Shown piece by piece: positions 1 to 19,033 of a stretch of DNA of 20,000 nucleotides; the stretch's first letter is position 1, and each line of letters starts with the position of its first letter. Both the position numbers and the translations under genes were made by a program. The stretch is from an uncultured virus (IMG/VR IMGVR_UViG_3300030503_000396). Its lineage: Duplodnaviria; Heunggongvirae; Uroviricota; Caudoviricetes. The notes beneath the pieces were generated by a model. That model saw only the letters and a list, made by a program, of their open reading frames with translations, was not told where the DNA came from and did not search any database. The stretch is taken from the IMG/VR virus record IMGVR_UViG_3300030503_000396. One strand, 5' to 3'.

Positions 1-2
1 TT

Positions 3-674
3 ACAGCAGGCAATCTTGTTTTACAGAGCAGGGCTACAGGTGCAAATAGGGATATTGTATTTGTCGGCAACACTACACCAGTGGCGCAGGCTGAAATTTA
101 CGGAGCAACGGGTGATTTTCAAGTAGGTGGCACGGCCGGAACGGATGCAGGGTATGGTGCCTACATCGGTAAGAACGGCATTAATGGATATTTTTATGGG
201 AGTCCCAATGTAAGTATTAATACAAGTGGCAATCTTACATTAGGTGGTATTCCAACGGCTCCAACAGCCGCAGTAGCAACCAATACAACACAAATAGCAA
301 CAATGGCTGCTATACAGGCGGCTATCGCTTTAACACCACAGATAAAAGGAACGGCAGATTTAACTTCTCAAAGTGCAGCAGGTAATATAACCACATTCAC
401 TGTAGGGGCTTCCACGGCTACTTTTGATGTGTCGGGGTATATAAACGTTACTGCGGTTACAACTGATGTTATAGAGGCTCAAATAACCTACACAGATGAG
501 AATAGCACTGCTCAAACAATAACATTAAGCAGCATAAGCGCAATAGGAAATAATTCATTTAGCAGTGGTAAAATCAGGTGTAAAAATGGTACTGTTATTA
601 CAGCTAAAACAACATTAACAACTGGGATTGGTAGTATAACGTTTGATGCCGGTGCAAGAATTGTAATGTATTAA
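3..674 (+). CDS. Tail fibre/tail-associated protein, C-terminal part (starts before the window)
   Basis: The frame is open from base 3 (TAGNLVLQSRATG...), so the 81 start is probably internal. G/T/A/S-rich, with a phage tail-fibre repeat-like segment GIPTAPTAAVATNTTQIAT. Confidence 0.75.
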   Translation, partial: TAGNLVLQSRATGANRDIVFVGNTTPVAQAEIYGATGDFQVGGTAGTDAGYGAYIGKNGINGYFYGSPNVSINTSGNLTLGGIPTAPTAAVATNTTQIATMAAIQAAIALTPQIKGTADLTSQSAAGNITTFTVGASTATFDVSGYINVTAVTTDVIEAQITYTDENSTAQTITLSSISAIGNNSFSSGKIRCKNGTVITAKTTLTTGIGSITFDAGARIVMY

Positions 675-692
675 TCCTTTAAAAAACATATC

Positions 693-809
693 ATGGCAAA
701 GAAAAAAACAACAAAAGTCGCACAACCGAAAGAAAACCCACCTCCGAAATGTCCGCAGGGACAGGTATGGAGTCAATCATTACAGAAATGTGTTGATGAC
801 GTGGGCTGA
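693..809 (+). CDS. 38-aa peptide with a two-Cys motif (not in ORF track)
   Basis: MAKKKTTKVAQPKENPPPKCPQGQVWSQSLQKCVDDVG*. A-rich leader; fills the gap between the 674 stop and the 814 start. Confidence 0.65.
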   Translation: MAKKKTTKVAQPKENPPPKCPQGQVWSQSLQKCVDDVG

Positions 810-813
810 TAAT

Positions 814-1182
814 ATGAAATGGGGTGTTTTAAGCCTACTTGCACTCTTGATTAATGTGGGGGTGTATGAAGTATATCTATACGAATTATTCTTTGGTACG
901 TGGGAGATGAGGGTTATTAAGGGTCTATTCTACCTGACAACGGCAATCATTTTGTCATTCCTGACTTATTTTGATATATTTGGTTATAAATCATGCTCTC
1001 AATTTGAGATCAATACCATTTGTAAATTCTCTTTGATTATAAACTTTTTATTTTTTGCTCTAACACTATATGATATTTTGCCCAACCATAGATTATATTT
1101 ATACACCTTTAACGGCACGATATTGGTAGCATCAATAGCAATCTTATATTTTGGCGTTAAATATGAAACTTTCGAGGATTGA
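814..1182 (+). CDS. Membrane protein with about 4 TM helices
   Basis: ATG at 814 (MKWGVLSLL...); four hydrophobic segments. Confidence 0.7.
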   Translation: MKWGVLSLLALLINVGVYEVYLYELFFGTWEMRVIKGLFYLTTAIILSFLTYFDIFGYKSCSQFEINTICKFSLIINFLFFALTLYDILPNHRLYLYTFNGTILVASIAILYFGVKYETFED

Positions 1183-1186
1183 TACA

Positions 1187-1483
1187 ATGACAGATACACC
1201 ACCTCCACTCTTTGATTGGTCTACGCTAATAGAGGTGTTTACACCGTGTATAACCATTTTGATAGCTTTTTTTAAGTATATTGATGTTTACTTTAAATCC
1301 AAAAAGGAGGAAAAGACGGAATTTATAGAAAAGATTGCGGAGGCTTCTGTGAACAAAACTTTAGATAAGGTATTTGCAGATCAAAATAGCAAAATTAGCA
1401 CGTTGTTTGAATATCGTGAGAGTGATAGAAAGCATTGGGATGATAGATTTGATGGGATTATGAATAAATTAGGAAAATTGTAG
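1187..1483 (+). CDS. Single-TM protein with charged helical tail (holin-like/lysis-associated candidate)
   Basis: ATG at 1187; one hydrophobic helix followed by a K/E-rich region; lies upstream of the endolysin. Confidence 0.55.
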   Translation: MTDTPPPLFDWSTLIEVFTPCITILIAFFKYIDVYFKSKKEEKTEFIEKIAEASVNKTLDKVFADQNSKISTLFEYRESDRKHWDDRFDGIMNKLGKL

Positions 1484-1565
1484 TAGGTCTTATACCATGA
1501 AACCAAAACACAACATCAGAATTTTAATAGCAACGGGATATTTCTAACACATATAATCTCCAAAA

Positions 1566-1643
1566 ATGATAGCTATAACTATAATTGTTTTAGTGTTATT
1601 ATGCTCTGCCACACTATTTATGAGTAACGGTAAAAAACCATGA
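1566..1643 (+). CDS. 25-aa hydrophobic peptide (not in ORF track)
   Basis: MIAITIIVLVLLCSATLFMSNGKKP*; ATGA overlap with the 1640 start. Confidence 0.45.
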   Translation: MIAITIIVLVLLCSATLFMSNGKKP

Positions 1644-1837
1644 AATCACTTGTCAGACTGATTTTCATTACGATTTTAGTTTGGCTTGCCCTTGTGTTAG
1701 GCTTGCATTATTTGGCTGGGATGAAAGATATTAAAACACGAAAATCGCACATTTGGATATATAAATATTTTCATAGAATTGGATTTAAAGAATATCTTTG
1801 TTTTATAAATTACGTAAAAAATGAAAAAACCACTTAG
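1640..1837 (+). CDS. Small membrane protein
   Basis: N-terminal TM helix and basic tail; overlaps both neighbours. Confidence 0.5.
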   Translation: MKSLVRLIFITILVWLALVLGLHYLAGMKDIKTRKSHIWIYKYFHRIGFKEYLCFINYVKNEKTT

Positions 1838-2420
1838 AATAATCTGCCAACTTATTGCTTGGCTTATGCTTATTATAAATGCTGAATGGTGTAATGGGCA
1901 GCAAGTCAAACACGTATATCCCGGCTTCACAACCTACTGGAACACAAAAACACTTATCCCTGATAGTGTGGTATATTTTGCTAAACCACATAAGAAAGTT
2001 GCACCCCGTTTGCCCTCATTCCACGTTGTTGGTAATATGGTTAACGAAGATAGGGATTATGCCAAATCGGGCTACGATCAAGGTCATTTATGTAACGCCT
2101 CGGACGAAAACGGGTCGGTAACCGATGAATACAACTCATTCGGTCAAGACAATATATTCCCCCAAACACCACAAGACAACCGATTAACTTGGCTTGCTAT
2201 TGAAAATTACGTAAGGCAATTAGCTGTTAAATACGGTTCAGTAAAAGTTAAGATATATTGGCAAGGCATTGAGGGTTATATGGGAATTGATAGGGTAACA
2301 ATACCTGCTAACTGCATTAAAGAAATTTGGTACTCAAATCATTATGAAAAATGGGTCGTGCCTAACACCACAACCGTTAATAGTAAACTTTTTACGACCT
2401 ATGAGGTTGTTAAGAATTAG
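1821..2420 (+). CDS. DNA/RNA non-specific endonuclease (NucA/EndoG-type His-Me finger) with N-terminal signal peptide or anchor
   Basis: DYAKSGYDQGHL matches the DRGH motif; NIFPQ...NRLTWLAIENYVR supplies the metal-binding Asn/Glu helix; basic then hydrophobic N-terminus. Confidence 0.85.
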   Translation: MKKPLRIICQLIAWLMLIINAEWCNGQQVKHVYPGFTTYWNTKTLIPDSVVYFAKPHKKVAPRLPSFHVVGNMVNEDRDYAKSGYDQGHLCNASDENGSVTDEYNSFGQDNIFPQTPQDNRLTWLAIENYVRQLAVKYGSVKVKIYWQGIEGYMGIDRVTIPANCIKEIWYSNHYEKWVVPNTTTVNSKLFTTYEVVKN

Positions 2421-2524
2421 CGAACATACGATATGACAACAATGGGGATATTTATAGTAAAGCTTGATTTCGGAACTATAACTATTAAAACGGGTAAATG
2501 AACCGTAAATTTAAGACATAAAAC

Positions 2525-2905
2525 ATGCAGGTCACAGTGAATAGGTTAACCCAAACCAAAGATGATACAATTAGTGCAGTTGAAATAAATGGTAGATTGA
2601 AATATTACGGCCTTGAAATTCTTAAATGTATTCCGCCCGGCACCTATCCCTTAACCCGTTATTTTTCACCTGATCATAACTTTTACGTACCACTTGTTAA
2701 TAACGTTCCCGGTTTTGAGGGCATAGAATTACATATAGCAAACACCGTAAAAGATGTAAAAGGTTGTTTAGGATTAGCCGATAATATAGAAAGTTTAGAA
2801 GACATAACAAATTCATGGGTGGCTGTAACCGAATTTTATACGGCTTTTTTTGCTGATTGTGCCGATGGGATTGAAAGTACAATAACTTATGTAGATTTAT
2901 TTTGA
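2525..2905 (+). CDS. DUF5675 family protein (L,D-transpeptidase-like fold, lysis-region protein)
   Basis: Motifs CIPPGTY, VPGFEGIELHIAN, DVKGCL (His...Gly-Cys). Confidence 0.8.
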   Translation: MQVTVNRLTQTKDDTISAVEINGRLKYYGLEILKCIPPGTYPLTRYFSPDHNFYVPLVNNVPGFEGIELHIANTVKDVKGCLGLADNIESLEDITNSWVAVTEFYTAFFADCADGIESTITYVDLF

Positions 2906-2928
2906 ACAGAAAATTTAGAAATAAACTT

Positions 2929-3477
2929 ATGGCAAACTTTAACGAAGCGCAGGCAATAACAGGTAAAACTGAATATGGGTATAATCCGGGTATTGGAGAA
3001 GCGCAAACAATAAATGGGGTTGACAGGTCGCAAAATCCTAAATGGCAGGGATGGACTATTGTTGACAATATATTGAATAGATGCCCACAATTAACGCCAC
3101 ATCAATTAAATCTTATTTTTGATGCCGATACCGAACTACAAAACATGATACTATCTTTCTTTAAGGTAAATTACTGGGATGTTTTATCACTGGACGAGGT
3201 GAACGATCAACAAGTCGCCAACACATGCTACGATTGTTCAATTAATCAAGGATCAGGAATTGCAGCACGTTTTATGCAGATTGCTTGTAACGCATTGCAT
3301 GTACCTGTAATTGTAGATGGACAAATAGGCAGTAAAACACTTGCGGCCATTAACTCAATCAATCCTGTGGCTTATTACGACGAAATAAATACTTTACGTG
3401 AAGCGAGGTATAAAGCAAGTAACAATAAAGAATGGATTGCTGATTGGCTCTCCCGCCTCACTCCCTATATTTCCTAA
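2929..3477 (+). CDS. Endolysin, glycoside hydrolase family 108, with peptidoglycan-binding C-terminus
   Basis: MANF..A...TEYGY (EGGY-like), T.NGV.R..NPKWQGW, FFKVNYWD, YDCSINQG, VDGQIGSKTLAAIN, WLSR. Confidence 0.85.
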   Translation: MANFNEAQAITGKTEYGYNPGIGEAQTINGVDRSQNPKWQGWTIVDNILNRCPQLTPHQLNLIFDADTELQNMILSFFKVNYWDVLSLDEVNDQQVANTCYDCSINQGSGIAARFMQIACNALHVPVIVDGQIGSKTLAAINSINPVAYYDEINTLREARYKASNNKEWIADWLSRLTPYIS

Positions 3478-3508
3478 AAAAGCCGGAATATCCGAAGATA
3501 GACCGGCT
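3476..3508 (-). terminator. Intrinsic terminator with C(UUCG)G loop
   Basis: Minus strand AGCCGG-uc-UAUC-UUCG-GAUA-uu-CCGGCU then UUUUU; sits between convergent genes. Confidence 0.8.
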
Positions 3509-3534
3509 AAGAACCGAAAGGCACAACCACGAGC

Positions 3535-4173
3535 CTAATCGGTGGTTTCTTTTGGCTTACCTATCAATCCCATCAACTCATCACACAATAATTCAGGCAT
3601 TTTGCTGCGTTCGTAACTGCCTTTTTTACCTTGTGTGCCTGTTTTGCTTCCTCTTGGAGCCGGTTGGTGGTGACAGCCCTTATTTCCATTATGGCAAACA
3701 GGCTTTGGTGTCCAGTCTAAATTAGTCCATATATCGGTCGGCTTTGCCCTATCATCTCCGTATTGGCAATACCAAATTGTATACCGAGGCAATGGCAACA
3801 TGAATGGCATTTTACGAAGCATACCACGAGGATTTTCAATTGTGAACGTTATATTAGGATTTAGCTTTTGGTAATATTCAATTAGTTTTAACACATTTTG
3901 ATTAACTCTATCACATTTTTTAGCATAATCACTTTTAGGTTCTATGTCATTCCTATGTGTGCTTATTGCTGCTATGGTATAGGTGGTGCAATCAAACGAG
4001 GCGTGGATATGGTCAGGAACAAATTTTATTAGATCTGGAGTTAAATATTCAATATCTATTTCCATATTAATATCTTCGTATGCAGTCCAATCTACGCTAA
4101 ATACTTCGTGACCTAATTTTTCGGCTGCTTTACCAATACACCGAGAACCGGCGAATAATTCTAATACTTTCAT
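3535..4173 (-). CDS. Short phage-type DNA (cytosine-5) methyltransferase
   Basis: Motif I LELFAGS, motif IV-like ASFDCTTY, motif VI IENP, and YCQYG...KPTDIW. Confidence 0.8.
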   Translation of the reverse strand: MKVLELFAGSRCIGKAAEKLGHEVFSVDWTAYEDINMEIDIEYLTPDLIKFVPDHIHASFDCTTYTIAAISTHRNDIEPKSDYAKKCDRVNQNVLKLIEYYQKLNPNITFTIENPRGMLRKMPFMLPLPRYTIWYCQYGDDRAKPTDIWTNLDWTPKPVCHNGNKGCHHQPAPRGSKTGTQGKKGSYERSKMPELLCDELMGLIGKPKETTD

Positions 4174-4194
4174 TTTTGTGGTTGTTTTAAACCC

Positions 4195-4251
4195 CTAATC
4201 TACAAAATCCTTTTCAAATTTGCAAATGTGGGGGGATGGGTGGTATATTTG
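4195..4251. promoter_or_regulatory. Overlapping divergent Bacteroidota-type promoters
   Basis: Plus strand: TTTG (4219-4222), 21 nt, TATATTTG (4244-4251). Minus strand: TTTG, 20 nt, TAGATTAG (4202-4195) toward the MTase. Confidence 0.7.
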
Positions 4252-4256
4252 CAACA

Positions 4257-4407
4257 AGCATGGGTGCTGAAACGGGGCTATGTATTACGGTACACCTTTT
4301 AGTAGGCACTTAGCACCACACACACACACCAAAGCAACGGCGGCTAAACCGTAAAGGCTGTGTAAATTAGCGGTTATGGGTACTTGGCGTACACGACCGC
4401 TTTTTTA
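4257..4407 (+). ncRNA. Candidate ~150-nt structured sRNA or attenuator leader
   Basis: Bounded by a consensus promoter and a terminator hairpin (4369-4401 plus U6); internal stems 4263-4270/4310-4317 and 4337-4340/4349-4352; (CA)6 linker. Confidence 0.5.
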
Positions 4408-4434
4408 TTTCGGGATAATTTTGTAGGTTTGGGG

Positions 4435-4737
4435 ATGAAACAATCATGGCTTGCAGATAACATTAAGAGCGTTACAGGGCTTATAATAATTATAGGTGTA
4501 ATTGTTTACCTTTTTATGGTAACGTTAATCACAACCGATACAACGGTTCATAGCCAGGCTTTAATAGCCATGGTATCTTTGGGAACTGCGGTTGTATCAT
4601 ACTACTATGGTTACTCTCAAGGCGCAAGTAAAAAAGACGATGCAGCAGCCAATTTAGCGGCAAACAGCCAAACCACAACAACCGCCACCACGGTTACGCC
4701 TGTTAACCAGCCTACTGATAATGCGCCGACGGCTTAG
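4435..4737 (+). CDS. Holin-like 2-TM protein
   Basis: ATG at 4435; two TM helices followed by VVSYYYGYSQGASKKD (similar to the YYFGSS.GS..K motif of phage holin-like proteins); Thr-rich tail. Confidence 0.65.
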   Translation: MKQSWLADNIKSVTGLIIIIGVIVYLFMVTLITTDTTVHSQALIAMVSLGTAVVSYYYGYSQGASKKDDAAANLAANSQTTTTATTVTPVNQPTDNAPTA

Positions 4738-4741
4738 TGAG

Positions 4742-5368
4742 TTAAGGCATAGTACCGAGGGTAGCTATTTCAATGGCTATTTTATTGGCGTTCTTAATTT
4801 TACGCTGTAACTTAACCAATTCATCTGGGCTAACTTCCATTAATCGGTAATTAAGGAATTGTATATAGCTATGTAGCATCAAGCCGCCTTTTTCTTGGTT
4901 ACATTCAAAGCAACAAGGTTTTATTATTTTACCGCCCTTACTTTTTGGTATAACATGCTCACGTGTTTTATGGGTAGGGTCTTTGATATGATTATACGTT
5001 AATTGCACCTCGCAATAACAACAGCGCCCATAGTCTTTTTGGTAATTTACTTTTTTAGGGGCTATATAAGCAACCGATAATTTAGACTTTATCTCTTTTA
5101 TTTCATTATTAATCGCTATTTTATGAACCGCCCTATTTGGCCTGCCTATACCTAAAAACTCAACATCATGGTGCATTTTAAGTATGGCTAAATCCTGCGA
5201 TGCTTTGAAGTACCACTTCTCTCCGTCAACTAAATATACAAACCATTCATCTAATTCAACTGGCTGCGTTTTGCTAAATAGCTTATTTCGCCTATCCTCA
5301 TTGCGCTGGGCTTTGTTTTTAGGTTTGAAAGCAGGTATATTGTCAAAAAGTCTTTCTATATCGCTCAT
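4742..5368 (-). CDS. HNH endonuclease (C-terminal Zn-binding HNH domain)
   Basis: RCCYC...TREHVIPKSKGG...CCFECNQEKG. Confidence 0.85.
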   Translation of the reverse strand: MSDIERLFDNIPAFKPKNKAQRNEDRRNKLFSKTQPVELDEWFVYLVDGEKWYFKASQDLAILKMHHDVEFLGIGRPNRAVHKIAINNEIKEIKSKLSVAYIAPKKVNYQKDYGRCCYCEVQLTYNHIKDPTHKTREHVIPKSKGGKIIKPCCFECNQEKGGLMLHSYIQFLNYRLMEVSPDELVKLQRKIKNANKIAIEIATLGTMP

Positions 5369-5384
5369 AGTTTAGTTTTTTCTT

Positions 5385-5412
5385 TAAAAAGCCGCCCCTT
5401 TCGGAACGGCTT
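5385..5412 (-). terminator. Intrinsic terminator with GAAA tetraloop
   Basis: Minus strand AAGCCGUUCC-GAAA-GGGGCGGCUU-UUU; the G-U pairs work only on the minus strand. Confidence 0.8.
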
Positions 5413-5589
5413 AAAAAGTGTGAGGGTAAGGGTCTCAATAAACAGCGCCAAGTACAATGCCGCTTATAGGCTTTAAATGGATTTCCGCCCATCCTGTTTA
5501 CCCATCCATAAAATAACGCATCCTTACATGCTGCACTCGCTGAATTGCTTCGTGGCTGTACCATTTTACTTTCGGCACTTTTGTTTTTT

Positions 5590-5665
5590 AAAAAAGGGCA
5601 TCCATCGCAGACTTTACTGCCAAAACGTTTTAACTTACCATTGTATGGTATATGGATGCCTTTTT
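5590..5665 (-). ncRNA. Multibranched stem-loop ending in a U tract
   Basis: Closing stem GGCATCCAT (5597-5605)/ATGGATGCC (5652-5660) encloses GCAG/CTGC, the palindrome AAAACGTTTT and TACCA/TGGTA. Confidence 0.5.
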
Positions 5666-5687
5666 ATCTTACTTCGCCAATATCGGC

Positions 5688-6167
5688 TTAACCCGCAGAA
5701 AACAACGGTTTAACCAAATCCAAATAAACGTATTTTACCACGTTCATGGCGATAGTTATTTCATTGCCGCCATTTAATATGGTTGCGGCTATACTTGCAC
5801 CTGCGTTGCATATATCAGCCCAATAACCGCCTAAGCCGCCTAAATATCCTTGCAAGGCAGTTAATAAAGCCGTGCCGCTCGATGTGTCTGCAATGGCTAT
5901 ATTAAAGGCTTTGGCAAGCCCCGCCATTACACTGATAACATCTGCTTCATTTATGCCAAACTTTGCTGTAATGGCAGCTAATACGGTTGCATAGGGGCCA
6001 GTTAGGTCTGCATTAATTGTGGCAAGTATGCCCGAGCCGTTTTTTAATGCCGCCTGTACTTCGGGGCTAAGTTTTTTGTAGGCTGCTTCTGCCTTGTTAA
6101 AAATTGATGTTACATCTTCTGCCAGTTCTTTAGGCAGGTCTTCGATGAATGTTAGTACGTTGCTCAT
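5688..6167 (-). CDS. Ala-rich amphipathic helical hypothetical protein
   Basis: 159-aa ORF with A-rich leader; no recognised motif. Confidence 0.75.
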   Translation of the reverse strand: MSNVLTFIEDLPKELAEDVTSIFNKAEAAYKKLSPEVQAALKNGSGILATINADLTGPYATVLAAITAKFGINEADVISVMAGLAKAFNIAIADTSSGTALLTALQGYLGGLGGYWADICNAGASIAATILNGGNEITIAMNVVKYVYLDLVKPLFSAG

Positions 6168-6202
6168 TTTATTTTTAACGGCTACCTATACGCCGATGGG
6201 TG

Positions 6203-6409
6203 TTAGTTAATGTAAATTGTTTTGATAGCTTTTGGTAATGTTTGAATTAGCTTATAAGCTTCTTGCCTATCTGCTCGTTTTTGTGATTGTTTTTTAACTT
6301 TATCGTTCTTGCCTTCGGTTTCTTTTAGCAATGATAATATAGTTATTTCAATTCCACTCGGTATTCTGCCTGCTTTGGTTAATCGCCCTGTATAATGCGC
6401 AACTTTCAT
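6203..6409 (-). CDS. Small basic hypothetical protein
   Basis: ORF with A-rich leader, downstream of a TAACTTTA promoter-like element (6459-6452). Confidence 0.55.
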   Translation of the reverse strand: MKVAHYTGRLTKAGRIPSGIEITILSLLKETEGKNDKVKKQSQKRADRQEAYKLIQTLPKAIKTIYIN

Positions 6410-6468
6410 ATTCTTTATAACCGCATTTTCAGGCGGTCGGCTGTTTTTATGTAAAGTTAAATATTTAT

Positions 6469-6657
6469 TTAATGATTTGTAACCGCCCTTATGCTATCAA
6501 CCCTAATCACACTATCCAAACTCTTTTCAAAGCGGTCGGTTACAGGTTGTATCGGCTGATATTTCGGATGATACTGTAACCATACCGCTAAACAGCATAT
6601 TAGGATTGCCATTAGGATCAAGGCGTTTTTGTTGGTGAAGATGCGGGAATTGTTCAT
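6469..6657 (-). CDS. Single-TM hypothetical protein
   Basis: Likely start at 6657 (MNNSRIFTNKNALILMAILICCLAVW); the longer track ORF extends into AT-rich intergenic DNA. Confidence 0.55.
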   Translation of the reverse strand: MNNSRIFTNKNALILMAILICCLAVWLQYHPKYQPIQPVTDRFEKSLDSVIRVDSIRAVTNH

Positions 6658-6773
6658 TTGATTAATATGGTTAGTAAAGCAAACAGATTTAATATTGCTA
6701 AAATAAAGGATAAAAAAAATAAAAATGATTTTAACAGCTACTGTTAATAAACGGTCTAAAGTGGTAAAATGGT

Positions 6774-6971
6774 TCATATCAATTGGTTTAATTCGTTTAA
6801 CAATATCTTGGCTTGTAAGAGGCACCGACTAATTGGTATATATCCTTCTGTTTCTTCGTTTTCAGTATATGCTTCATCAATCAGTGCAATCACCGAACTT
6901 ACCCTATCATTCAAAGTCGGCACCTTGGCTTTTACTATTTCGCCGTTTATTAGTTTGGAACCTTTTTTCAT
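6774..6971 (-). CDS. Hypothetical protein
   Basis: Last gene of the tightly packed leftward run. Confidence 0.6.
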   Translation of the reverse strand: MKKGSKLINGEIVKAKVPTLNDRVSSVIALIDEAYTENEETEGYIPISRCLLQAKILLNELNQLI

Positions 6972-7059
6972 TTTATTGTATCAGGTAAAATTAAAGTTGT
7001 TCCATCAATATATAATACTGCACCATCTTTGGATGGTAGTGTTAAATCATGCGTGTAGG

Positions 7060-7224
7060 TTACGCTTCATGGTTTAATTCTTTTAAAGTTGGTAAATAGC
7101 CGAATTGTATTCTTACAAATGGAAGTATAATGTTGTGAGTGTAACCACCGGGTATAACCTCGTAAACATCTTTCCAGTAACCTATCCCGATTATTGGAGC
7201 TAATTTTATGTGAAATGTTTTCAT
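7060..7224 (-). CDS. 54-aa hypothetical protein (not in ORF track)
   Basis: MKTFHIKLAPIIGIGYWKDVYEVIPGGYTHNIILPFVRIQFGYLPTLKELNHEA*; starts 1 nt after the 7226 stop. Confidence 0.6.
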   Translation of the reverse strand: MKTFHIKLAPIIGIGYWKDVYEVIPGGYTHNIILPFVRIQFGYLPTLKELNHEA

Positions 7225-7225
7225 T

Positions 7226-7468
7226 TTAAGCGTTCTCCTCCATTTGTTTTACAAAGGCTTCGTATTCATCATCGGTTAATTGTAATAACGTAATAGATAT
7301 GCGAGGTCTGCCATATTCAGGCTCAAAGTTCGGCTCGAAATGCCCCCATTCATCCTCGATAGCCTCTAATTGGCTTTTAATATCGCTAAACTCACAAATA
7401 GTCCACGTGTATTCTAAAGCGCAATTGATAAACTTTATTCGGGTGTAGTTTTTGGTTTCTTCGCTCAT
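7226..7468 (-). CDS. Acidic hypothetical protein
   Basis: ATGA overlap with the upstream gene. Confidence 0.7.
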   Translation of the reverse strand: MSEETKNYTRIKFINCALEYTWTICEFSDIKSQLEAIEDEWGHFEPNFEPEYGRPRISITLLQLTDDEYEAFVKQMEENA

Positions 7469-7719
7469 ATCTTTAATTTTAAAATGGATTGTTTGTCGAC
7501 CTGTATATTATCAGCACCCGATTGATGGTGTTTAGTTGGGTAATTATTCTTGGTGTATCCGTCATGGTAGACCATTGTTGCGCTCTCCGCAGCATCTTCA
7601 ATAGCCCTGTTGTATGCAAGTTGCATGGCTGTGATAATCTCATCATGTGTGTAAGAACGGATACTTTTATAACCTAACCTATCCTCCAACAACTTTTCTA
7701 TTTTCTCTTTCGGTGTCAT
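7465..7719 (-). CDS. Hypothetical phage protein
   Basis: MTPKEKIE...AYNRAIEDAAESA...VDKQSILKLK; packed within the operon. Confidence 0.7.
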   Translation of the reverse strand: MTPKEKIEKLLEDRLGYKSIRSYTHDEIITAMQLAYNRAIEDAAESATMVYHDGYTKNNYPTKHHQSGADNIQVDKQSILKLKI

Positions 7720-7721
7720 AA

Positions 7722-7933
7722 TCAAATTAGATCGGTGGTATCAGGGTGTTCAATACATAATTCATGTCCAAACATTTGCATAGACTCAAAATGGTTTAAT
7801 CGGTTAATTTTAATGGCACAATCGGGGCAGTACCATTTACGGGTAGAAAAGTTATAATAACTCCTACTGGTTTTTGACAATCAGTTCGGTTGCAATTACC
7901 GTCCTTTTGCCCTTTAAGTTTTTTCGCTGTCAT
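7722..7933 (-). pseudogene. Frameshifted Cys-rich (Zn-finger-like) small gene
   Basis: Frame 0 gives MTAKKLKGQKDGNCNRTDCQK; the -1 frame continues YYNFSTRKWYCPDCAIKINRLNHFESMQMFGHELC... to a TGA just before the next ATG. Confidence 0.65.
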
Positions 7934-8136
7934 AATTGTTTGATTTGTGTTAGTAAGTCCGTTAAGTCCGATGCCAAAACTAATACGTGAGTTCTGTCTA
8001 TGGTTGATTGCACTGCTTTTAGCACATTCTCAATCGTTTCTGCTTTTGTTTGGTCGCAAGCCTCGGCAACTTCATTTTTCGTAAACAGGGTTATTTTACC
8101 ATGTTCAACTATACCTATGCGTTCTAAACCTTTCAT
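7930..8136 (-). CDS. Hypothetical protein
   Basis: ATGA overlaps at both ends. Confidence 0.65.
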   Translation of the reverse strand: MKGLERIGIVEHGKITLFTKNEVAEACDQTKAETIENVLKAVQSTIDRTHVLVLASDLTDLLTQIKQL

Positions 8137-8465
8137 ACTTTATTTTTTAAATATGTTGTTGGGTTGTGAGGCTCGAAATAATTGGAACAATAAATATTTG
8201 CCTCTCTTTCAACCGTGTCTTGATTTACCTTTTCTATTATCGCCAAAACTTCATCATCCGTATAGAGCCTTTTAGCCGCTTCGTTATAGCCTGAAAAATG
8301 CTCTTCCATTGCATTGTAAATGCTATCGGTAACACCATTATCTTTTTGCCATTCATGGAATGTTCTATCAGGATTTGTTCTACCAGTATGAAATGCACCG
8401 AACAACGTATTGTCAATTATATTCCAATATGCTTGTTTTTCTTCCGCCTTTTTCTGTGTTTCCAT
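8133..8465 (-). CDS. Hypothetical protein
   Basis: Likely start METQKKAEEK at 8465. Confidence 0.7.
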   Translation of the reverse strand: METQKKAEEKQAYWNIIDNTLFGAFHTGRTNPDRTFHEWQKDNGVTDSIYNAMEEHFSGYNEAAKRLYTDDEVLAIIEKVNQDTVEREANIYCSNYFEPHNPTTYLKNKV

Positions 8466-8472
8466 GTTGGGG

Positions 8473-8643
8473 TTATTTGGTTTTACGGGCGATGTACTTG
8501 TCAATTTCAGCCTCGGCTATTTTAGTCATAGGCATACGGTCGGCTTTGCATAGTTTGTTAAATTCATCATATTTAGCACTTGTCATATAAACAGGTAGCG
8601 ATACAATATCAGTTGGTAATTTTTCTTTTTTGTTCTTTGCCAT
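8473..8643 (-). CDS. Small DNA-binding protein, ribbon-helix-helix-like
   Basis: Beta strand VSLPVYM followed by two helices (KYDEFNKLCK, MTKIAEAEIDKYI). Confidence 0.55.
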   Translation of the reverse strand: MAKNKKEKLPTDIVSLPVYMTSAKYDEFNKLCKADRMPMTKIAEAEIDKYIARKTK

Positions 8644-8662
8644 AGTATTATCTTTTACCACC

Positions 8663-8683
8663 AAAGGCTATCCGAAGATAGCC
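8663..8683 (-). terminator. Hairpin/terminator with C(UUCG)G loop
   Basis: GGCUAUC-UUCG-GAUAGCC-UUU; shares TATCCGAAGATAG with the 3476-3508 terminator. Confidence 0.7.
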
Positions 8684-8711
8684 AATAGTAGAAAGAATAG
8701 AGTAGTCAAAA

Positions 8712-9722
8712 CTATTCAGTTTCTTTTGCCTTACCGTCAACCAACTTGTAATACGTATCAGCTTTTATTTTTTTGCCATCAACCTTAAAGGCTTTAACAT
8801 CTATAGGTTTCCATAATTCGTAACCTTTGTTATCGTCTACGTATTCAGCTAAAACAATAAAAGATCCTAAAGATGCTTTTGCTTTTCCGTTAGCGTTTAA
8901 CGCTGCGGAAATACAACCCTCGCCCGATGTTGCGCTGTTTGCACCGTAGCCTGATGTTGCGCTGTTTGCACGGTCGCCCGATGTTGCGCTGTTTGCATAT
9001 CTGCCCGATGTTGCGCTGTTTGCACCGTAGCCTGATGTTGCGCTGTTTGCACCGTAGCCCGATGTTGCGCTGTTTGCACCGTAGCCCGATGTTGCGCTGT
9101 TTGCACTGTAGCCCGATGTTGCGCTGTTTGCATATCTGCCCGATGTTGCGCTGTTTGCACTGTAGCCCGATGTTGCGCTGTTTGCATATCTGCCCGATGT
9201 TGCGCTGTTTGCACCGTAGCCTGATGTTGCGCTGTTTGCACGGTCGCCCGATGTTGCGCTGTTTGCACCGTAGCCTGATGTTGCGCTGTTTGCACCGTAG
9301 CCCGATGTTGCGCTGTTTGCACCGTAGCCTGATGTTGCGCTGGAATTTTCTGTTACTTCTTTAGCTTTAGAAAAAATGAACTTAACAGCACCATTAATTA
9401 ATGATGACATACTAACTTCTAATCCTATTTCTATTTTAGAGGTGGCAACCTTACTATCATCTGTATGATAGGAGAATTTATCTTTACCAATTACTTCGGT
9501 AAACCTGTTACCATTAGTTGGCGCATAATAATTAAACACATCTAACGGATTTTCACAATAATGAAACCCATTATTACAAGTCGATGGCTCACCTTGTTCC
9601 TCGAATTCTTTGCCTATTTCATATTGAAAATTACGGCACTTTAAATCTTTGTCAAAGCCTTTATACCCTTTGACTGTTTTTTCTTCTTTTGCTTGATCTG
9701 CAACTTCTTTTTCTTTTTTCAT
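8712..9722 (-). CDS. DUF7666-like phage protein with 16 nonapeptide repeats
   Basis: N-terminal GYKGFDKDLKCRNFQYEIG...CNNGFHYCENPLDVFNYY; ANSATSGxx repeats; C-terminal VDGKKIKADTYYKL. Confidence 0.85.
   Translation of the reverse strand: MKKEKEVADQAKEEKTVKGYKGFDKDLKCRNFQYEIGKEFEEQGEPSTCNNGFHYCENPLDVFNYYAPTNGNRFTEVIGKDKFSYHTDDSKVATSKIEIGLEVSMSSLINGAVKFIFSKAKEVTENSSATSGYGANSATSGYGANSATSGYGANSATSGDRANSATSGYGANSATSGRYANSATSGYSANSATSGRYANSATSGYSANSATSGYGANSATSGYGANSATSGYGANSATSGRYANSATSGDRANSATSGYGANSATSGEGCISAALNANGKAKASLGSFIVLAEYVDDNKGYELWKPIDVKAFKVDGKKIKADTYYKLVDGKAKETE
8916..9347 (-). repeat. 16 x 27-bp coding tandem repeat
   Basis: GCA AAC AGC GCA ACA TC(G/A) GGC plus two variable codons; the first unit is slightly degenerate. 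Confidence 0.95.
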
Positions 9723-9748
9723 TTTGTTTGACTACTTTTTAATTTGTT

Positions 9749-9860
9749 AAAAATAAGCAGGTATTTGAACTCGCTTCGCATACCTGCTTTAACCTAAACC
9801 TTATCACAATGTAGCGGTTGCTACGTACCACCTAATCCCCGCTATGTTGTAGCGGGGTAG
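9749..9860 (-). terminator. Hairpin cluster ending in a terminator-like stem
   Basis: CCCCGCTA/TAGCGGGG, GTAGC/GCTAC, and AAGCAGGTAT/ATACCTGCTT followed by AUUUUU on the minus strand. Confidence 0.6.
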
Positions 9861-9900
9861 CAGACCCTGAAACGTTTATCAAGGCAAATCAGAGTGTTTT

Positions 9901-10140
9901 TTAAATAGGCTTAAACCTATGATTATTTTGTATAATAGCAATTGGTTTGTTACCCCTGTAACAGGTAATATAGTCTATACGCCAAGATGAACCAGTGCTT
10001 ACAACCTCAACAACTTTTCCTACGTAGTCAAAAAGAATATTTGATTGAAATTTAATGTGTTCAAATTTAACAATGCCGCCTTTTCTTACAAGGCGTTCAC
10101 CACTAAACAAAGACCCCTCGCTACCTCTTTTATCTGCCAT
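9901..10140 (-). CDS. Small beta-rich protein, weakly similar to the Mu transposase C-terminal domain
   Basis: RLVRKGGIVKF...FQS..L.DYVGKVVEV pattern. Confidence 0.55.
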   Translation of the reverse strand: MADKRGSEGSLFSGERLVRKGGIVKFEHIKFQSNILFDYVGKVVEVVSTGSSWRIDYITCYRGNKPIAIIQNNHRFKPI

Positions 10141-10219
10141 GCTTATTGCCTATATAAATTAATAATAAACCAATTGGTAAACATAGTATCATAAACCATA
10201 TAAATATAGATTGAAGCAT
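10130..10219 (-). CDS. 29-aa single-TM peptide (not in ORF track)
   Basis: MLQSIFIWFMILCLPIGLLLIYIGNKHGR*; fills the operon gap. Confidence 0.5.
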   Translation of the reverse strand: MLQSIFIWFMILCLPIGLLLIYIGNKHGR

Positions 10220-10221
10220 GT

Positions 10222-10596
10222 TTAACGTTTTAATATTTCTTTAATTCTACTAACAAATATTTCTTTAGTATAGCTATCCGATGTGCTATTAATTTCTTCA
10301 AAAGTATTTCTATTAACCCGTTTAGCTAAAACAAATGGATTATAGCGTTCATCAGACGGGTGATAATGCTTTATACCAACCTTATGCACCTTATATGTAA
10401 ATTCAGTTCCCATAGTAAAAATAGTACCAACGCTTATTTTATTATCTACTAAATACATAAAACAATGCTCCATCTTAGAGACAAGCAGTCTTTTATTCGC
10501 TATAATATCATCTTCTAATTTATCTTCAATTGATAGATATTTTTCGTAATCATCAAAGACTGCCTGTTTGATTAAATCACTAACTTTTTTGCTCAT
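10222..10596 (-). CDS. Hypothetical protein
   Basis: 124-aa ORF in a packed operon. Confidence 0.7.
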   Translation of the reverse strand: MSKKVSDLIKQAVFDDYEKYLSIEDKLEDDIIANKRLLVSKMEHCFMYLVDNKISVGTIFTMGTEFTYKVHKVGIKHYHPSDERYNPFVLAKRVNRNTFEEINSTSDSYTKEIFVSRIKEILKR

Positions 10597-10801
10597 TTGG
10601 ATTTATATAATATTTATCAGGCTGTATGTAGTGACCCTGATTGTTATACCCGCTACTTGTTGAAAGCCTAACTTCGTTGTCTTGTTGTTTTGCTATTTTT
10701 ACAGCATCAGACCAAGATATTACACCTAAATAGGTTTGCGGTGTTTCACTCCATGGTTGATATGGAACTTTAACCGTCATGTAAGTTGCTTCTTTTTTCA
10801 T
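10580..10801 (-). CDS. Hypothetical protein
   Basis: First gene after the leftward promoter-like TATACTTG (10844-10837). Confidence 0.7.
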   Translation of the reverse strand: MKKEATYMTVKVPYQPWSETPQTYLGVISWSDAVKIAKQQDNEVRLSTSSGYNNQGHYIQPDKYYINPNEQKS

Positions 10802-10946
10802 AATAACGTTTTTTTAATTTGCCTTGATTGACAATACAAGTATAGGGAGTATTTTTGATATTAAGAAATTTATTTGTAATTTTTATTATTTTTATTTTAA
10901 ATATAAAAATAGTATATTTGCACGTAACAAAATAAAAAATATAATT

Positions 10947-11423
10947 ATGACTGTAATTTATGAAATAAAATGTCCAAAAACTGGATTCCTGTTATATGTA
11001 GGAAGATCTATTAGTTTTGAGGGAAGAAAAAAAGAGCACATGCAGGGGTGCTTTGGATATATTGGTAAGTATATAAAAGCCCTTACATCTATTGGTGAAG
11101 ATCCTATTTTTGGGCAACTTGAAACATGTGAAGATGAAGATGCCAACGAGAGGGAAGGGTTATGGATAGAAAAACTTTCTCCGTTGCTAAATATAGCTAC
11201 ATCTGGCAATGTAAGCGTAAAAAGACGACACAATAAGATAAGAAAAACAAAATATCCATTCAATAGCATAAAAGTTGGTGATACGTTTGAAATAAATTCA
11301 GAAGATTTTAATTCGATGTCTACATCGTTGCGTGGGTTCAACTCGAGACATTCTACAAAAATTCAACTTTCAGCAAGTGATAGTTTTACAGATGGTAATT
11401 TAATAATACAAAGAATAAAATAA
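10947..11423 (+). CDS. GIY-YIG nuclease with C-terminal putative DNA-binding domain (homing-endonuclease-like)
   Basis: MTVIYEI...LYVGRS...RKKEH...ERE..WI...LLN; C-terminal KYPF.SIKVGDTF; TATATTTG element at 10913-10920. Confidence 0.8.
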   Translation: MTVIYEIKCPKTGFLLYVGRSISFEGRKKEHMQGCFGYIGKYIKALTSIGEDPIFGQLETCEDEDANEREGLWIEKLSPLLNIATSGNVSVKRRHNKIRKTKYPFNSIKVGDTFEINSEDFNSMSTSLRGFNSRHSTKIQLSASDSFTDGNLIIQRIK

Positions 11424-11437
11424 TTTTTTAAAATAAA

Positions 11438-11469
11438 TTTGCACATCTCATTCCTACCCCTTACCTTTA
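11438..11469 (+). promoter_or_regulatory. Bacteroidota-type promoter
   Basis: TTTG (11438-11441), 20 nt, TACCTTTA (11462-11469). Confidence 0.65.
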
Positions 11470-11502
11470 CAAAACTTTAAACGAAAGAAAAACTTAGCGA
11501 TT

Positions 11503-11868
11503 ATGAGAGACAAAGAAAAAATTAACCACTGGCCTTTAATAAATAAGGCTATTAATATTTCAGTTAAAATTCAGAACAAAGGATTAGCAACTGTATTTTT
11601 TGATTTTAGTGGTCACGTAAACAAAATATCTTTTAGGATTTATGAGCCTGTTTATTATGACGGAGCTTCGTATGAAACCATTGAATGCTATGTGGGATAT
11701 GAAGATTCGGAAAAATACATATTAAATATAATATCACGCCTGCAATCTATATGCAGGAAAAGAGCTATTGATGAAGTTAAGCAAAAACAAATTGCCGCTA
11801 AGCTAATATTAGATACTAAAAAAGCGCAATACGAACGGCTTAAAAAAGAATTGGAAGAAACTGTTTAA
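11503..11868 (+). CDS. Hypothetical phage protein
   Basis: VFFDFSGHVN motif; coiled-coil C-terminus. Confidence 0.75.
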   Translation: MRDKEKINHWPLINKAINISVKIQNKGLATVFFDFSGHVNKISFRIYEPVYYDGASYETIECYVGYEDSEKYILNIISRLQSICRKRAIDEVKQKQIAAKLILDTKKAQYERLKKELEETV

Positions 11869-11958
11869 GTTCTGCTAAGTCTTTAGCAGTCGGATTAGCC
11901 CACCGTAACGGGTTTTTACATAACCACCCTCATTTCGCAGGGAAAAGAAAAAAGAAAG

Positions 11959-12366
11959 ATGAAACTTGAAGCGAAGCACTTTGCAAAAGATAGGTTCTAT
12001 GTACCAACGCATAGTTCAAGGCAAGTAGGTTTATATAAGCTACTAATTAAAAGCCGCGGTATTGCACCTGAAATAGTGTGCGAATGCTTAGATACATATT
12101 TTGACTTATATCTTAAAAGCCAATTCGCGCCCGAAAGAATGAGCAATAGTGAAAAGAAATATTATACACAACGTAGGATTAAGGCTTACACAATTGAACA
12201 TGCAAGCGGAGATAACTTTGATAAATTTTTAAAAATTGTTACTGAAAAAACAGGACAGACATTTAAGACCAAATTCAAGAAACGCAGAAACGCTTATGAT
12301 GATTGGTATGCCGAAGCATCAATGGATGGAACGCTTGCATATTCAGGAGTAACAGACGATTTTTAA
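11959..12366 (+). CDS. Hypothetical protein
   Basis: 135-aa ORF with A-rich leader. Confidence 0.7.
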   Translation: MKLEAKHFAKDRFYVPTHSSRQVGLYKLLIKSRGIAPEIVCECLDTYFDLYLKSQFAPERMSNSEKKYYTQRRIKAYTIEHASGDNFDKFLKIVTEKTGQTFKTKFKKRRNAYDDWYAEASMDGTLAYSGVTDDF

Positions 12367-12413
12367 CCCCCGCCAATTAATTGTATTGGCGTTAAGAAGA
12401 AAAAATTAAAACT

Positions 12414-12626
12414 ATGGAAAATATAGAAGATAAAAAATATAAACTAATTATGGCTCTTCAAAAAGAGCGTGATTGGTTTGCTGAAAAAGGTAAAAGTACA
12501 TGGGATCACGATTATTCGATACATTATTTAAGGACAGGTGAAATACATGGGGACTTAGAAAAATGCGAAATATTAGATGCTGCAATTAATGATTTTGATT
12601 GCCTTTACCACGACTATTGTAATTAA
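12414..12626 (+). CDS. Hypothetical protein
   Basis: 70-aa ORF with A-rich leader. Confidence 0.7.
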   Translation: MENIEDKKYKLIMALQKERDWFAEKGKSTWDHDYSIHYLRTGEIHGDLEKCEILDAAINDFDCLYHDYCN

Positions 12627-12648
12627 CCTAAAAAATCAGAGCGCAAAA

Positions 12649-12945
12649 ATGAAAAAGACAGGGAGTGACACATATACAGCATTACGGGTTGATAATGGAT
12701 TTAGAGTAGCCGGATATTACGTATTCAGCCGAGGGAAACACTACATTCTTGAATCATATAACGATAATGGTTATGATGAACGTTGGGAAACCTCTGAATG
12801 GATAGAGGTTAAAGAAGAAAGCGTAATTAACTTCAGGGCTAAAGAACTCGAAACCGTATTAACCACCATTAAAGATAACGTATTGGTTAATTATAAAAAG
12901 GACAATACCATGTATAACTTGGCTTATAACACCCTTAAAAACTAA
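12649..12945 (+). CDS. YopX-like N-terminal domain protein
   Basis: ALRVDNGFRVAGYY...HYI...WIEVKEESV resembles YopX (GKR.DNGEWV.GY...EV.PETV). Confidence 0.55.
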   Translation: MKKTGSDTYTALRVDNGFRVAGYYVFSRGKHYILESYNDNGYDERWETSEWIEVKEESVINFRAKELETVLTTIKDNVLVNYKKDNTMYNLAYNTLKN

Positions 12946-12992
12946 CCCCCGCCATTACTTTTGTTGTATTGGCACTAATTGAAAAGAAAGAT

Positions 12993-13154
12993 ATGAAAAC
13001 TTACAAAGTATCACCAATAGCATATCACAAATTACGTGTAATGCTTTCAGGTTTGGTTTTTCACAGAGTTGATGAACTGAACAATCATTTTATAAAACCG
13101 TTCAAATCGGTAGAAAAATATGTAAAACTTGCAGGAGGGGTTGAGGTATGTTAA
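12993..13154 (+). CDS. Small hypothetical protein
   Basis: ATG at 12993 after an AAAAGAAAGAT leader. Confidence 0.6.
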   Translation: MKTYKVSPIAYHKLRVMLSGLVFHRVDELNNHFIKPFKSVEKYVKLAGGVEVC

Positions 13155-13315
13155 ATGCTACGTACGACCTAACAGAAAAAGATTTGGCGGTTTTAAGGTA
13201 TCGTCAACTCCAAAGCGAACAAGCCGCCTGGAACATCCAAAGGCAACAACGCAACCCGAATTATAAGCCGCTCTTTAGTTGGCGGAGGGTGAATATAGCG
13301 AGGAGGGTTGTATAA
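13148..13315 (+). CDS. 55-aa hypothetical protein (not in ORF track)
   Basis: MLNATYDLTEKDLAVLRYRQ...RRVV*; TAATG overlap with the next gene. Confidence 0.55.
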   Translation: MLNATYDLTEKDLAVLRYRQLQSEQAAWNIQRQQRNPNYKPLFSWRRVNIARRVV

Positions 13316-13638
13316 TGGGAGAAATAGCAGACATGATGCTTGACGGCATATTAGATGCCAATGGCGAATATACAGGGCGTAATTATGGGCATCCTGTTTA
13401 CCCTAAAGGGTGGTTTGGGAAAAAGAAGTTTGTAAATTCTGCACCGGCTGTTTTTAAGGTACAAAACTTTATGTCACAGCGTGGCATCCCTAAAGGCGAA
13501 CAACAAAAGCAAGCACTTGAAGATTACAAGTCACATGTAGGTTGTGAAAGACCTACTAACCACACTTATAGTAATTGGCCTATATTCAAAGCATTTATAG
13601 ATGGCAGGATTGGATATATTAAACCTTCGAAACTTTAA
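13315..13638 (+). CDS. Hypothetical phage protein
   Basis: Start MGEIADMMLDG, a recurrent phage N-terminal motif. Confidence 0.7.
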   Translation: MGEIADMMLDGILDANGEYTGRNYGHPVYPKGWFGKKKFVNSAPAVFKVQNFMSQRGIPKGEQQKQALEDYKSHVGCERPTNHTYSNWPIFKAFIDGRIGYIKPSKL

Positions 13639-13642
13639 AACA

Positions 13643-14035
13643 ATGGAAAATAAAACAGAAAAACCGATAGCGGTAAAACTAATTAACGAAAGTGAATTTG
13701 ATGTATTTAAGGCTTATTATGGTAAAAAATCGTATTATGTAGGCGATATTGAATCGTATAATCCTTTATACCCTTTGTTTTATTTTAGCGGGAAAACAAT
13801 ACAATGCGCTTCAATCGATAGTGGGATTGGTAAAAGTTCAGTAATACTAAGTTTAGAAAACATTTCATCTTTAACAGGCATTCAATTACCTAAAAATGGG
13901 ATAGAGTTAGATTTGTCTGGCATGAAAGCCATAGTCAAAAAAAATGAAGTTACATTTGAACTTCACGGTCATAAACAATTATTGTTTAAAAGCGAAATTA
14001 GTAAGGTTATGGCTGCCTTTGCATCATTTGGCTAA
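13643..14035 (+). CDS. Hypothetical protein
   Basis: ATG at 13643 (MENKTEK). Confidence 0.7.
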   Translation: MENKTEKPIAVKLINESEFDVFKAYYGKKSYYVGDIESYNPLYPLFYFSGKTIQCASIDSGIGKSSVILSLENISSLTGIQLPKNGIELDLSGMKAIVKKNEVTFELHGHKQLLFKSEISKVMAAFASFG

Positions 14036-19009: not shown

Positions 19010-19033
19010 TTTTATAATTTAAAAAGATCAAAA

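Follow-up and report, generated by a model that had tools for sequence, protein, structure and literature searches.

Covarying complementarity between the start region and 3' untranslated region of a DUF7666 repeat-protein gene in an uncultured peat phage

The DNA analyzed here, a stretch of 20,000 nucleotides from IMG/VR record IMGVR_UViG_3300030503_000396 (hereafter the window), belongs to the genome of an uncultured phage found in peat metagenomes. An initial annotation had pointed to four transcription units in which a short leader element, X, is matched by its reverse complement, X', behind the stop codon. These are the units of a DNA methyltransferase gene, of a DUF7666 repeat-protein gene (8712-9722, minus strand, hereafter W1), of an operon of three small open reading frames (ORFs) and of a gene starting at 11503. 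It had proposed such self-complementary ends as a general design of the transcription units of this phage. We find, by comparison with related phages, that one of the four units, W1, has been selected for this property and that its start region and 3' untranslated region (UTR) probably pair as RNA within one message.

Complementary flanks of W1 and its homologues

All four X/X' pairs proved to be exact reverse complements at the coordinates reported, with lengths of 8 nt for the methyltransferase unit, 10 nt for W1, 12 nt for the operon and 7 nt for gene 11503 (Table 1). The 8-, 10- and 12-mers are unique in the window and the 7-mer has one extra copy per strand. It was also correct that X stops 4 nt before the ATG in the three single-gene units; the operon X occupies a different position. 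X' starts at +2 after the stop codon in W1, at +5 in the methyltransferase unit, at +6 in the gene-11503 unit and at +12 in the operon. Extra copies of the 12-mer with at most two mismatches (6 versus 3.97 expected) and of the 10-mer with at most one mismatch (3 versus 1.63 expected) occurred at chance level, and the idea that either serves as a repeated regulatory motif was therefore rejected.

Relatives of the second DUF7666 gene of the window (W2, from 19034 onward on the plus strand) led to four AT-rich phage records of 41-76 kb, G005 to G008, in which the DUF7666 gene stands alone with a promoter-like TAnnTTTG box on one side and a hairpin on the other. W1 and these homologues have a leader frame in common, AAAA-N-NNNN-TCAAA followed by 3-4 nt and the ATG, as well as a trailer frame consisting of the stop codon, TT[T/C]TGA-NNNN, about 20 nt, CTAT, a hairpin and CTTTGG. 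The W1 leader itself is A-rich and lacks a Shine-Dalgarno sequence. Its 3' hairpin is followed by UUUGG and not by a long U run, and has homologous counterparts in G005, G006 and G008 with compensatory changes in the stem.

Within these frames, W1 forms a pair of 10 bp (AGTAGTCAAA / TTTGACTACT). In G005, AGCTTTCA at -13..-6 is complementary to TGAAAGCT at +4..+11 over 8 bp. The same pair is present in G006, the halves of whose DUF7666 gene lie at opposite contig ends, although the flanking spacers have diverged between the two records. G007 carries 10 bp between AAATTTCAAA at -14..-5 and TTTGAAATTT at +3..+12. Copy 1 of G008, with a leader and a trailer hairpin plainly homologous to those of W1, has AUGGUCA / UGACCGU, i.e. 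7 bp including one G-U. Pairs were counted in the register set by the invariant TCA and TGA, as whole-gene MAFFT alignments misplaced the leader or the G007 trailer. In this register, the 4-nt core covaries between GTAG/CTAC (W1), GCTT/AAGC, AATT/AATT and AUGG/CCGU (G008, with its G-U). The cognate cores were paired at 4/4 positions in all four combinations (16/16 cells, 15 of them Watson-Crick and one G-U) and all four core positions vary. The non-cognate cores, on the other hand, were fully paired in 0/12 combinations, with a mean of 1.67/4.

We also scanned genes for matches of at least 7 nt with X ending at -7..-4 and X' starting at +1..+8, limits that had been chosen after seeing the window cases. 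Matches in 66 other loci (568 genes) were confined to two DUF7666 genes (L017 and L130). For the W1 unit, chance does not account for four independent cores that covary in a fixed register, nor for a scan whose only other matches there are homologues of W1. Judged from these comparisons, the complementarity at the ends of the DUF7666 repeat-protein genes is a product of selection. The compensatory changes that the initial annotation had suggested looking for in homologous genes were thus found in a subgroup of the repeat-protein genes; the methyltransferase homologues (24 loci) and most repeat-protein homologues have not kept such a pairing.

Pairing as RNA and the competing readings

When the full-length W1 message was folded with its 5' end at 9745, the helix between X and X' was part of the minimum-energy structure with 9/10 pairs and a mean probability of 0.85. 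With short leaders, helix probabilities of 0.71-0.81 were obtained for G007 and of 0.21-0.45 for G005. The idea of a message that folds back on itself or is closed by a terminal stem has accordingly gained comparative support, through the four covarying cores, for the repeat-protein unit and none for the other units.

A Bacteroidota host is suggested by three well-placed copies of the promoter-like motif TANNTTTGC together with leaders lacking a Shine-Dalgarno sequence; the motif showed no overall enrichment (9 copies versus 8.49 expected). Pairing of X with X' as RNA in the same transcript would make the finished message, once free of ribosomes, close on itself and cover the A-rich initiation region. 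In hosts that do without Shine-Dalgarno sequences this region has to be unstructured for initiation, and a helix spanning -14..-5 should prevent ribosomes from starting on such a message. Tuning of initiation by leader structure has been described for a member of the Bacteroidetes (PMC6847099). With X' located 2-4 nt behind the stop codon, a ribosome in the act of terminating would sit on it and make the leader accessible again. We accordingly favour a role of the pairing as a translation-dependent brake, or as a shield that protects the ends of idle mRNA from decay.

The covariation could also reflect an inverted repeat at the DNA level, in which an invertase, another recombinase or a DNA-binding protein would use both arms, and the arms would be kept alike by this shared protein or by conversion. 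The inverted repeats do flank the entire W1 ORF, two of the four cores are palindromes, and site pairs of a single protein would covary as well. Bacteroidota are, moreover, known for invertible segments. This explanation is nevertheless decidedly unlikely. The G008 pair constitutes a T-G mismatch as DNA and a G-U pair as sense-strand RNA, the arms measure merely 7-10 bp, and their register relative to the start and stop codons is fixed, within the inferred transcript. The window proteins scanned (31 against Pfam and 24 against PHROGs) included no member of an integrase or invertase family; small ORFs without family match remain candidates. All contigs across either arm had one orientation with no strand-changing joint listed, contigs showing the majority form only. 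Taken together, the G-U pair, the register, the location within the inferred transcript, the failure to find a recombinase family among the scanned proteins and the single orientation lead us to favour RNA over DNA, none of these points being decisive.

Alternatively, X' may act in trans, as part of a small RNA that would be released from the 3' UTR together with the hairpin, pair with the leaders of further copies of the message and thereby bring about autoregulation. The same covariation would be predicted, the stable conserved hairpin about 25 nt after X' would yield a stable 3' fragment, and X' is single-stranded in the centroid structure predicted locally for W1. We consider this highly unlikely. 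The Rfam scan of the window returned no match, no other evidence for a small RNA was found, and terminating ribosomes offer a simpler explanation for the location of X', which in all members lies 2-4 nt behind the stop codon.

Several observations weigh against pairing as RNA within one message. There are only four independent lineages with the pairing, and two of their cores (the AGCT-centred one and AATT) are themselves palindromic. In copy 1 of G008, X overlaps the likely start codon and is not located at -14..-5. The pairing is lacking in homologues embedded in operons, which comprise G003 and G004, G009, the closest W1-type homologue (58-61% identical), and G012, the latter two with longest matches of 5 and 4 nt, respectively, as well as 25 distinct leader/trailer lineages. 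These lineages came from a survey of 80 IMG/VR loci that gave 52 repeat-protein genes with usable boundaries (one row was dropped); their longest matches were 3-6 nt plus one AT-only 8-mer, and the mean of 4.64 equals the null level. Most of the surveyed homologues sit in tight operons without UTRs. Furthermore, the ends of the W1 transcript are themselves predicted from sequence, and the predicted formation of the helix depends on the ends assumed, ranging from 0.002 to 0.85. With longer 5' leaders, the probability falls to 0.06 for W1, to 0.04 for G007 and to 0.002 for G005. Finally, a constraint at the DNA level or a trans-acting 3' UTR RNA would give the same covariation.

Some further features of the DUF7666 genes and their surroundings were recorded. 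Long near-perfect tandem repeats with 27-nt and 15-nt units are present inside both genes of the window (8900-9340 and 19750-20000). DUF7666 genes are often split over contig ends because many public contigs, among them G001, L013 and several IMG/VR records, stop within these repeats. The operon-borne DUF7666 gene of G004 is flanked by a 12-nt direct, not inverted, repeat, AACATAAACTAA (L016 2504-2533 and 3407-3436). Stable minus-strand hairpins are located about 20-33 nt before the starts of W1 and of the HNH endonuclease gene (5388-5420 for the latter) and leave little or no space for promoters of their own; the two genes may be expressed by read-through from upstream, or the hairpins may be 5' stability elements. 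The 3' hairpins behind the methyltransferase gene and W1 share the 13-nt sequence TATCCGAAGATAG (3489-3501 and 8669-8681) with a CUUCGG loop on the minus strand.

Complementary gene ends elsewhere in the window and in other phages

To evaluate the proposed general layout we used a hand-curated list of 42 window genes, a few doubtful small ORFs among them. In the main comparison, the 30 nt before each start were matched against the 30 nt after each stop, for cognate combinations as well as for 1722 non-cognate leader/trailer pairs. Since non-cognate pairs reached at least 7 nt in 5.5% and at least 8 nt in 1.5% of all cases, the reported 7- and 8-mers are individually ordinary. Matches of at least 10 nt were found in 4/1722 non-cognate pairs. 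The operon pair itself is one of these four, and in a further one the endolysin leader matches the helicase trailer, 14 kb away, over a nonsense 11-mer.

For the 42 genes, the longest cognate Watson-Crick match averaged 5.29 versus 4.72 upon permutation (p ~3e-4), and 19 genes had a match of at least 6 nt versus 8.2 expected. Same-sense matches were likewise enriched, and an excess of matches of at least 6 nt was also seen for physically meaningless "reverse" and "complement" matches (control-class counts of 17, 13 and 14 versus 10.8, 10.1 and 8.4 expected at a width of 30 nt). Because these meaningless controls share it, the excess is an effect of local composition and not of pairing. The inverted class stood out solely at a tight width of 14 nt, with 4 cognate matches of at least 7 nt versus 0.27-0.34 expected. 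This test is post hoc, as the four matches are the three picks of the initial annotation plus a TAAAAAA run. Duplex energies in the window were also in excess (-7.19 versus -6.16 kcal/mol, p = 0.004), and by our own arithmetic the three picked genes largely carry this difference.

Outside the window, cognate pairs were no better than non-cognate ones. The IMG/VR contig G001 (33.6 kb) matches window positions 1-9171 at 100% identity and continues for about 24.4-24.5 kb beyond, thus providing an extension of the same phage. Its 34 automatically called genes had a mean longest match of 4.76 versus 4.77 (p = 0.53) and a duplex energy of -6.91 versus -6.95 (p = 0.52). G008, which carries a related repeat-protein gene copy and shares merely 4/44 window proteins, yielded 0 matches of at least 7 nt among 111 genes at a width of 14 nt (0.62 expected). 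In 64 other non-redundant phage loci (512 genes), there were 3 such matches versus 2.72 expected at 14 nt and 21 versus 26.4 expected at 30 nt. The claim of a genome-wide layout is not supported by these results and is rejected.

That at least three of the four units are functional and self-complementary ends are general in this phage is thus unlikely. It would agree with the geometry of the methyltransferase and gene-11503 pairs, with -5 as the last position of X and +5 or +6 as the first of X', with the order of stop codon, X' and CUUCGG-loop hairpin that the methyltransferase unit has in common with W1, and with the fact that the operon 12-mer is the sole 12-mer among the 1722 non-cognate pairs. 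In addition, the geometry-restricted scan found 3/77 non-DUF7666 genes in this phage (2/41 in the window and 1/36 in the extension) versus 0/677 elsewhere. The limits of that scan, however, were fixed after the cases had been seen, and its third match, in the extension, lies inside the neighbouring coding sequence of a tight operon; the same scan of G008 gave 0/111 genes. Independent genes showed no excess, methyltransferase homologues lack the pairing, and the window units 11959-12366 and 12414-12945, which have hairpins of their own, have longest matches of merely 3-4 nt. A separate 11-nt inverted pair in the extension consists of the promoter-like TATATTTGCGTA ahead of a small gene and of a complementary copy in the first codons of the gene that follows, and may represent an antisense promoter.

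Coincidence as the origin of all four matches, picked from a 20-kb AT-rich window with nothing selected, accounts well for much of this. It agrees with the frequency of 7- and 8-mers in non-cognate pairs, the nonsense 11-mer, the excess of 6-mers equalled by meaningless controls, and the lack of any excess in the 34 extension genes, the 111 genes of G008 and the 512 genes elsewhere; the window had, moreover, been selected from very many. As an account of all four units it is extremely unlikely, as it fails for the covarying cores of W1 and leaves unexplained why the only other matches in 568 genes are W1 homologues. For each of the methyltransferase, gene-11503 and operon units, chance is the single most likely reading. 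The 8-mer of the methyltransferase and the 7-mer of gene 11503 have W1-like geometry, are at or near chance level and are without comparative support.

In 24 methyltransferase loci besides the phage's own (the closest being 69, 64 and 62% identical), the longest leader/trailer matches were 3-6 nt, with the exception of one AT-only 9-mer far from the start. The methyltransferase is absent from G003-G006. Its pair has a slightly better than even probability of being coincidental. The intergenic region between this gene and gene 4435 (window 4186-4440) is bracketed by a 23-nt imperfect inverted repeat (83% complementary) and contains a promoter-like TATATTTGC, a stretch of CA repeats and a hairpin that, with its U run, resembles a terminator. 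The candidate small RNA in this region (4255-4412) folded no better than shuffled sequences (z = -0.73) and had no Rfam match.

The operon 12-mer is statistically unusual and its geometry is different, with one arm at the presumed mRNA 5' end and the other immediately ahead of a hairpin. From base composition we estimate, by our own arithmetic, that about one window in 100 would show a 12-mer in some multi-gene unit. Seven of the 12 bases of X' are part of a predicted local hairpin. For the 124-aa operon protein, no relatives were found in IMG/VR, metagenomes gave merely two copies with 100% protein identity, and it is absent from G003-G006. X and X' were unchanged in all strain variants. On balance, we regard this pair as probably fortuitous. 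A 271-nt contig of another peat run shares only the 76-nt intergenic module 9825-9900, comprising the hairpin and the operon X', and is unlike the window to either side of it; G>A at 9855 in this contig leaves the minus-strand RNA hairpin intact via G-U. In two runs, the 79-aa gene loses its stop codon through T>A at 9902; the protein would gain 4 residues and end at TGA 9889-9891, abutting X'. The X4 joint 9811 -> 10899 was not trusted because its short side has 21 letters and lies in an AT-rich low-complexity stretch.

In the gene-11503 unit, the predicted pairing probability of X and X' is 0.03. Merely two remote partial matches were obtained as relatives of the gene, and the pair is likely to be due to chance. 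The initial annotation had considered the inverted repeats as possible boundaries of DNA cassettes. A strain variant (L013, run X3), with identities of 99.3% across window 9147-11492 and of 100% across 12364-13735, swaps both genes of 11492-12363 for unrelated ORFs (L013 1373-2104). It keeps the promoter and leader to 11491, the hairpin downstream and, separating the two genes, a linker of about 45 nt, AACCACCCTCATTTCGCAGGGAAAAGAAAAAAGA. The segment is a cassette exchanged at conserved intergenic linkers; these are direct, and a boundary role of the inverted repeats is not supported.

The gene content of the window is that of a phage, with a tail-fibre-like protein, a nuclease, a GH108-type endolysin, the DNA methyltransferase, HNH and GIY-YIG endonucleases and a helicase, besides many small ORFs without family. 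The minus-strand small ORFs 7722-7880 and 7796-7933 overlap in different frames and may represent a frameshift or a miscalled gene. Metagenome contigs cover 9007-13596 and 9147-13735, and parts of the phage are present in 18 DNA runs, all of them peat metagenomes, among which no RNA run with this stretch is listed. No near relative was found in the INPHARED phage collection, and the window gave no match in tRNA and Rfam scans. The literature searched did not mention DUF7666, and a search on long-range interactions between 5' and 3' UTRs in phage or bacterial mRNA returned nothing relevant, only an unrelated review.

Table 1. Units with complementary ends and associated features (window positions unless stated otherwise; X and X' positions relative to start and stop codon)
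Feature	Position	Strand	Basis
W1 gene, 336 aa: N-terminal DUF7666 domain, tandem 9-residue repeats, C-terminal domain	8712..9722	-	PF24703 E = 2.4e-33; phrog_4433
X of W1, AGTAGTCAAA (mRNA sense), -14..-5 before ATG at 9722	9727..9736	-	exact complement of 8701-8710 (10 nt); homologous in G005-G008
X' of W1, UUUGACUACU, +2..+11 after stop codon 8712-8714	8701..8710	-	exact complement; homologues
W1 3' hairpin GGCUAUCUUCGGAUAGCC, 3' of X'	8666..8683	-	sequence, local fold
Hairpin directly upstream of W1 leader, end ~33 nt before ATG	9755..9789	-	z = -4.05 for 9742-9905
W2 leader AAAAAGAUCAAAA AUG, homologous to W1 leader	19016..19033	+	second DUF7666 gene; trailer beyond window
DNA methyltransferase gene, 212 aa	3535..4173	-	phrog_757, E = 8.4e-28
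X of methyltransferase unit, ACAACCAC, -12..-5	4178..4185	-	exact complement (8 nt); W1-like geometry
X' of methyltransferase unit, +5..+12 after stop, before terminator-like hairpin 3481-3508	3523..3530	-	exact complement
Operon of three small ORFs (73, 124, 79 aa), without family match	9901..10801	-	ORF list, family scans
X of operon, AUCAAGGCAAAU, -27..-16 before ATG 10801	10817..10828	-	exact complement (12 nt); near inferred transcript 5' end
X' of operon, +12..+23 after stop 9901-9903	9878..9889	-	exact complement; just before conserved hairpin
X of gene 11503, ACUUAGC, -11..-5	11492..11498	+	exact complement (7 nt); first base = left edge of strain-variable cassette
X' of gene 11503, within 5' arm of local 7-bp hairpin 11872-11889	11874..11880	+	exact complement
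11-nt inverted pair with TATATTTGCGTA	L011 (G001 contig 9100-21500), ~2500-2510 and 2783-2793 of joined extension		

Known 5'-3' pairings and implications

Pairing between the 5' and 3' UTR of one bacterial-type mRNA has been experimentally established for few genes, icaR, hbs and hok among them. In icaR of Staphylococcus aureus, a short 3' UTR motif pairs with the message's own ribosome-binding region and limits translation, as proposed here for W1, and its 7-nt core motif is similar in length to the arms of the W1 family (PMC3868564). icaR differs in that a Shine-Dalgarno sequence is the target, a substrate of RNase III is formed and the 3' UTR is long. The W1 family, known here from sequence alone, has a leader without Shine-Dalgarno sequence and X' 2-4 nt after the stop codon. 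In hbs of Bacillus subtilis, a 14-bp long-range helix joins the UTRs of a short monocistronic mRNA, a likeness to W1, and ties mRNA stability to translation initiation; there, RNase Y cleavage is modulated in a structured leader, unlike the short and A-rich leader of W1 (PMC5737220). The analogy drawn by the initial annotation was hok, in which the completed full-length mRNA is closed by 5'-3' pairing (tac/fbi) and translationally inert. According to PMC9841398, hok requires 3' processing and the antisense RNA Sok and has a toxin as product, none of which was seen for W1.

As the comparisons above illustrate, chance alone produces perfect inverted matches of 7-12 nt at the ends of genes in AT-rich phage DNA, and it was only through relatives that the real case could be told from such look-alikes. 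A broader form of the proposal has a small probability. It would hold that in phages of hosts without Shine-Dalgarno sequences several single-gene messages (DUF7666, methyltransferase and possibly others) carry the complement of the initiation region right after the stop codon, so that the terminating ribosome melts the helix and reopens its own start. If this were true, a translation-coupled closed loop would keep translated mRNAs active and silence or protect idle ones, and bacterial viruses would have independently reached a form of control by mRNA circularisation. The DUF7666 gene family of phages itself provides a compact and directly testable case, with a short pairing, a register to both start and stop codons, and compensatory change. 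It would show control of translation without a Shine-Dalgarno sequence, and termination feeding back on initiation.

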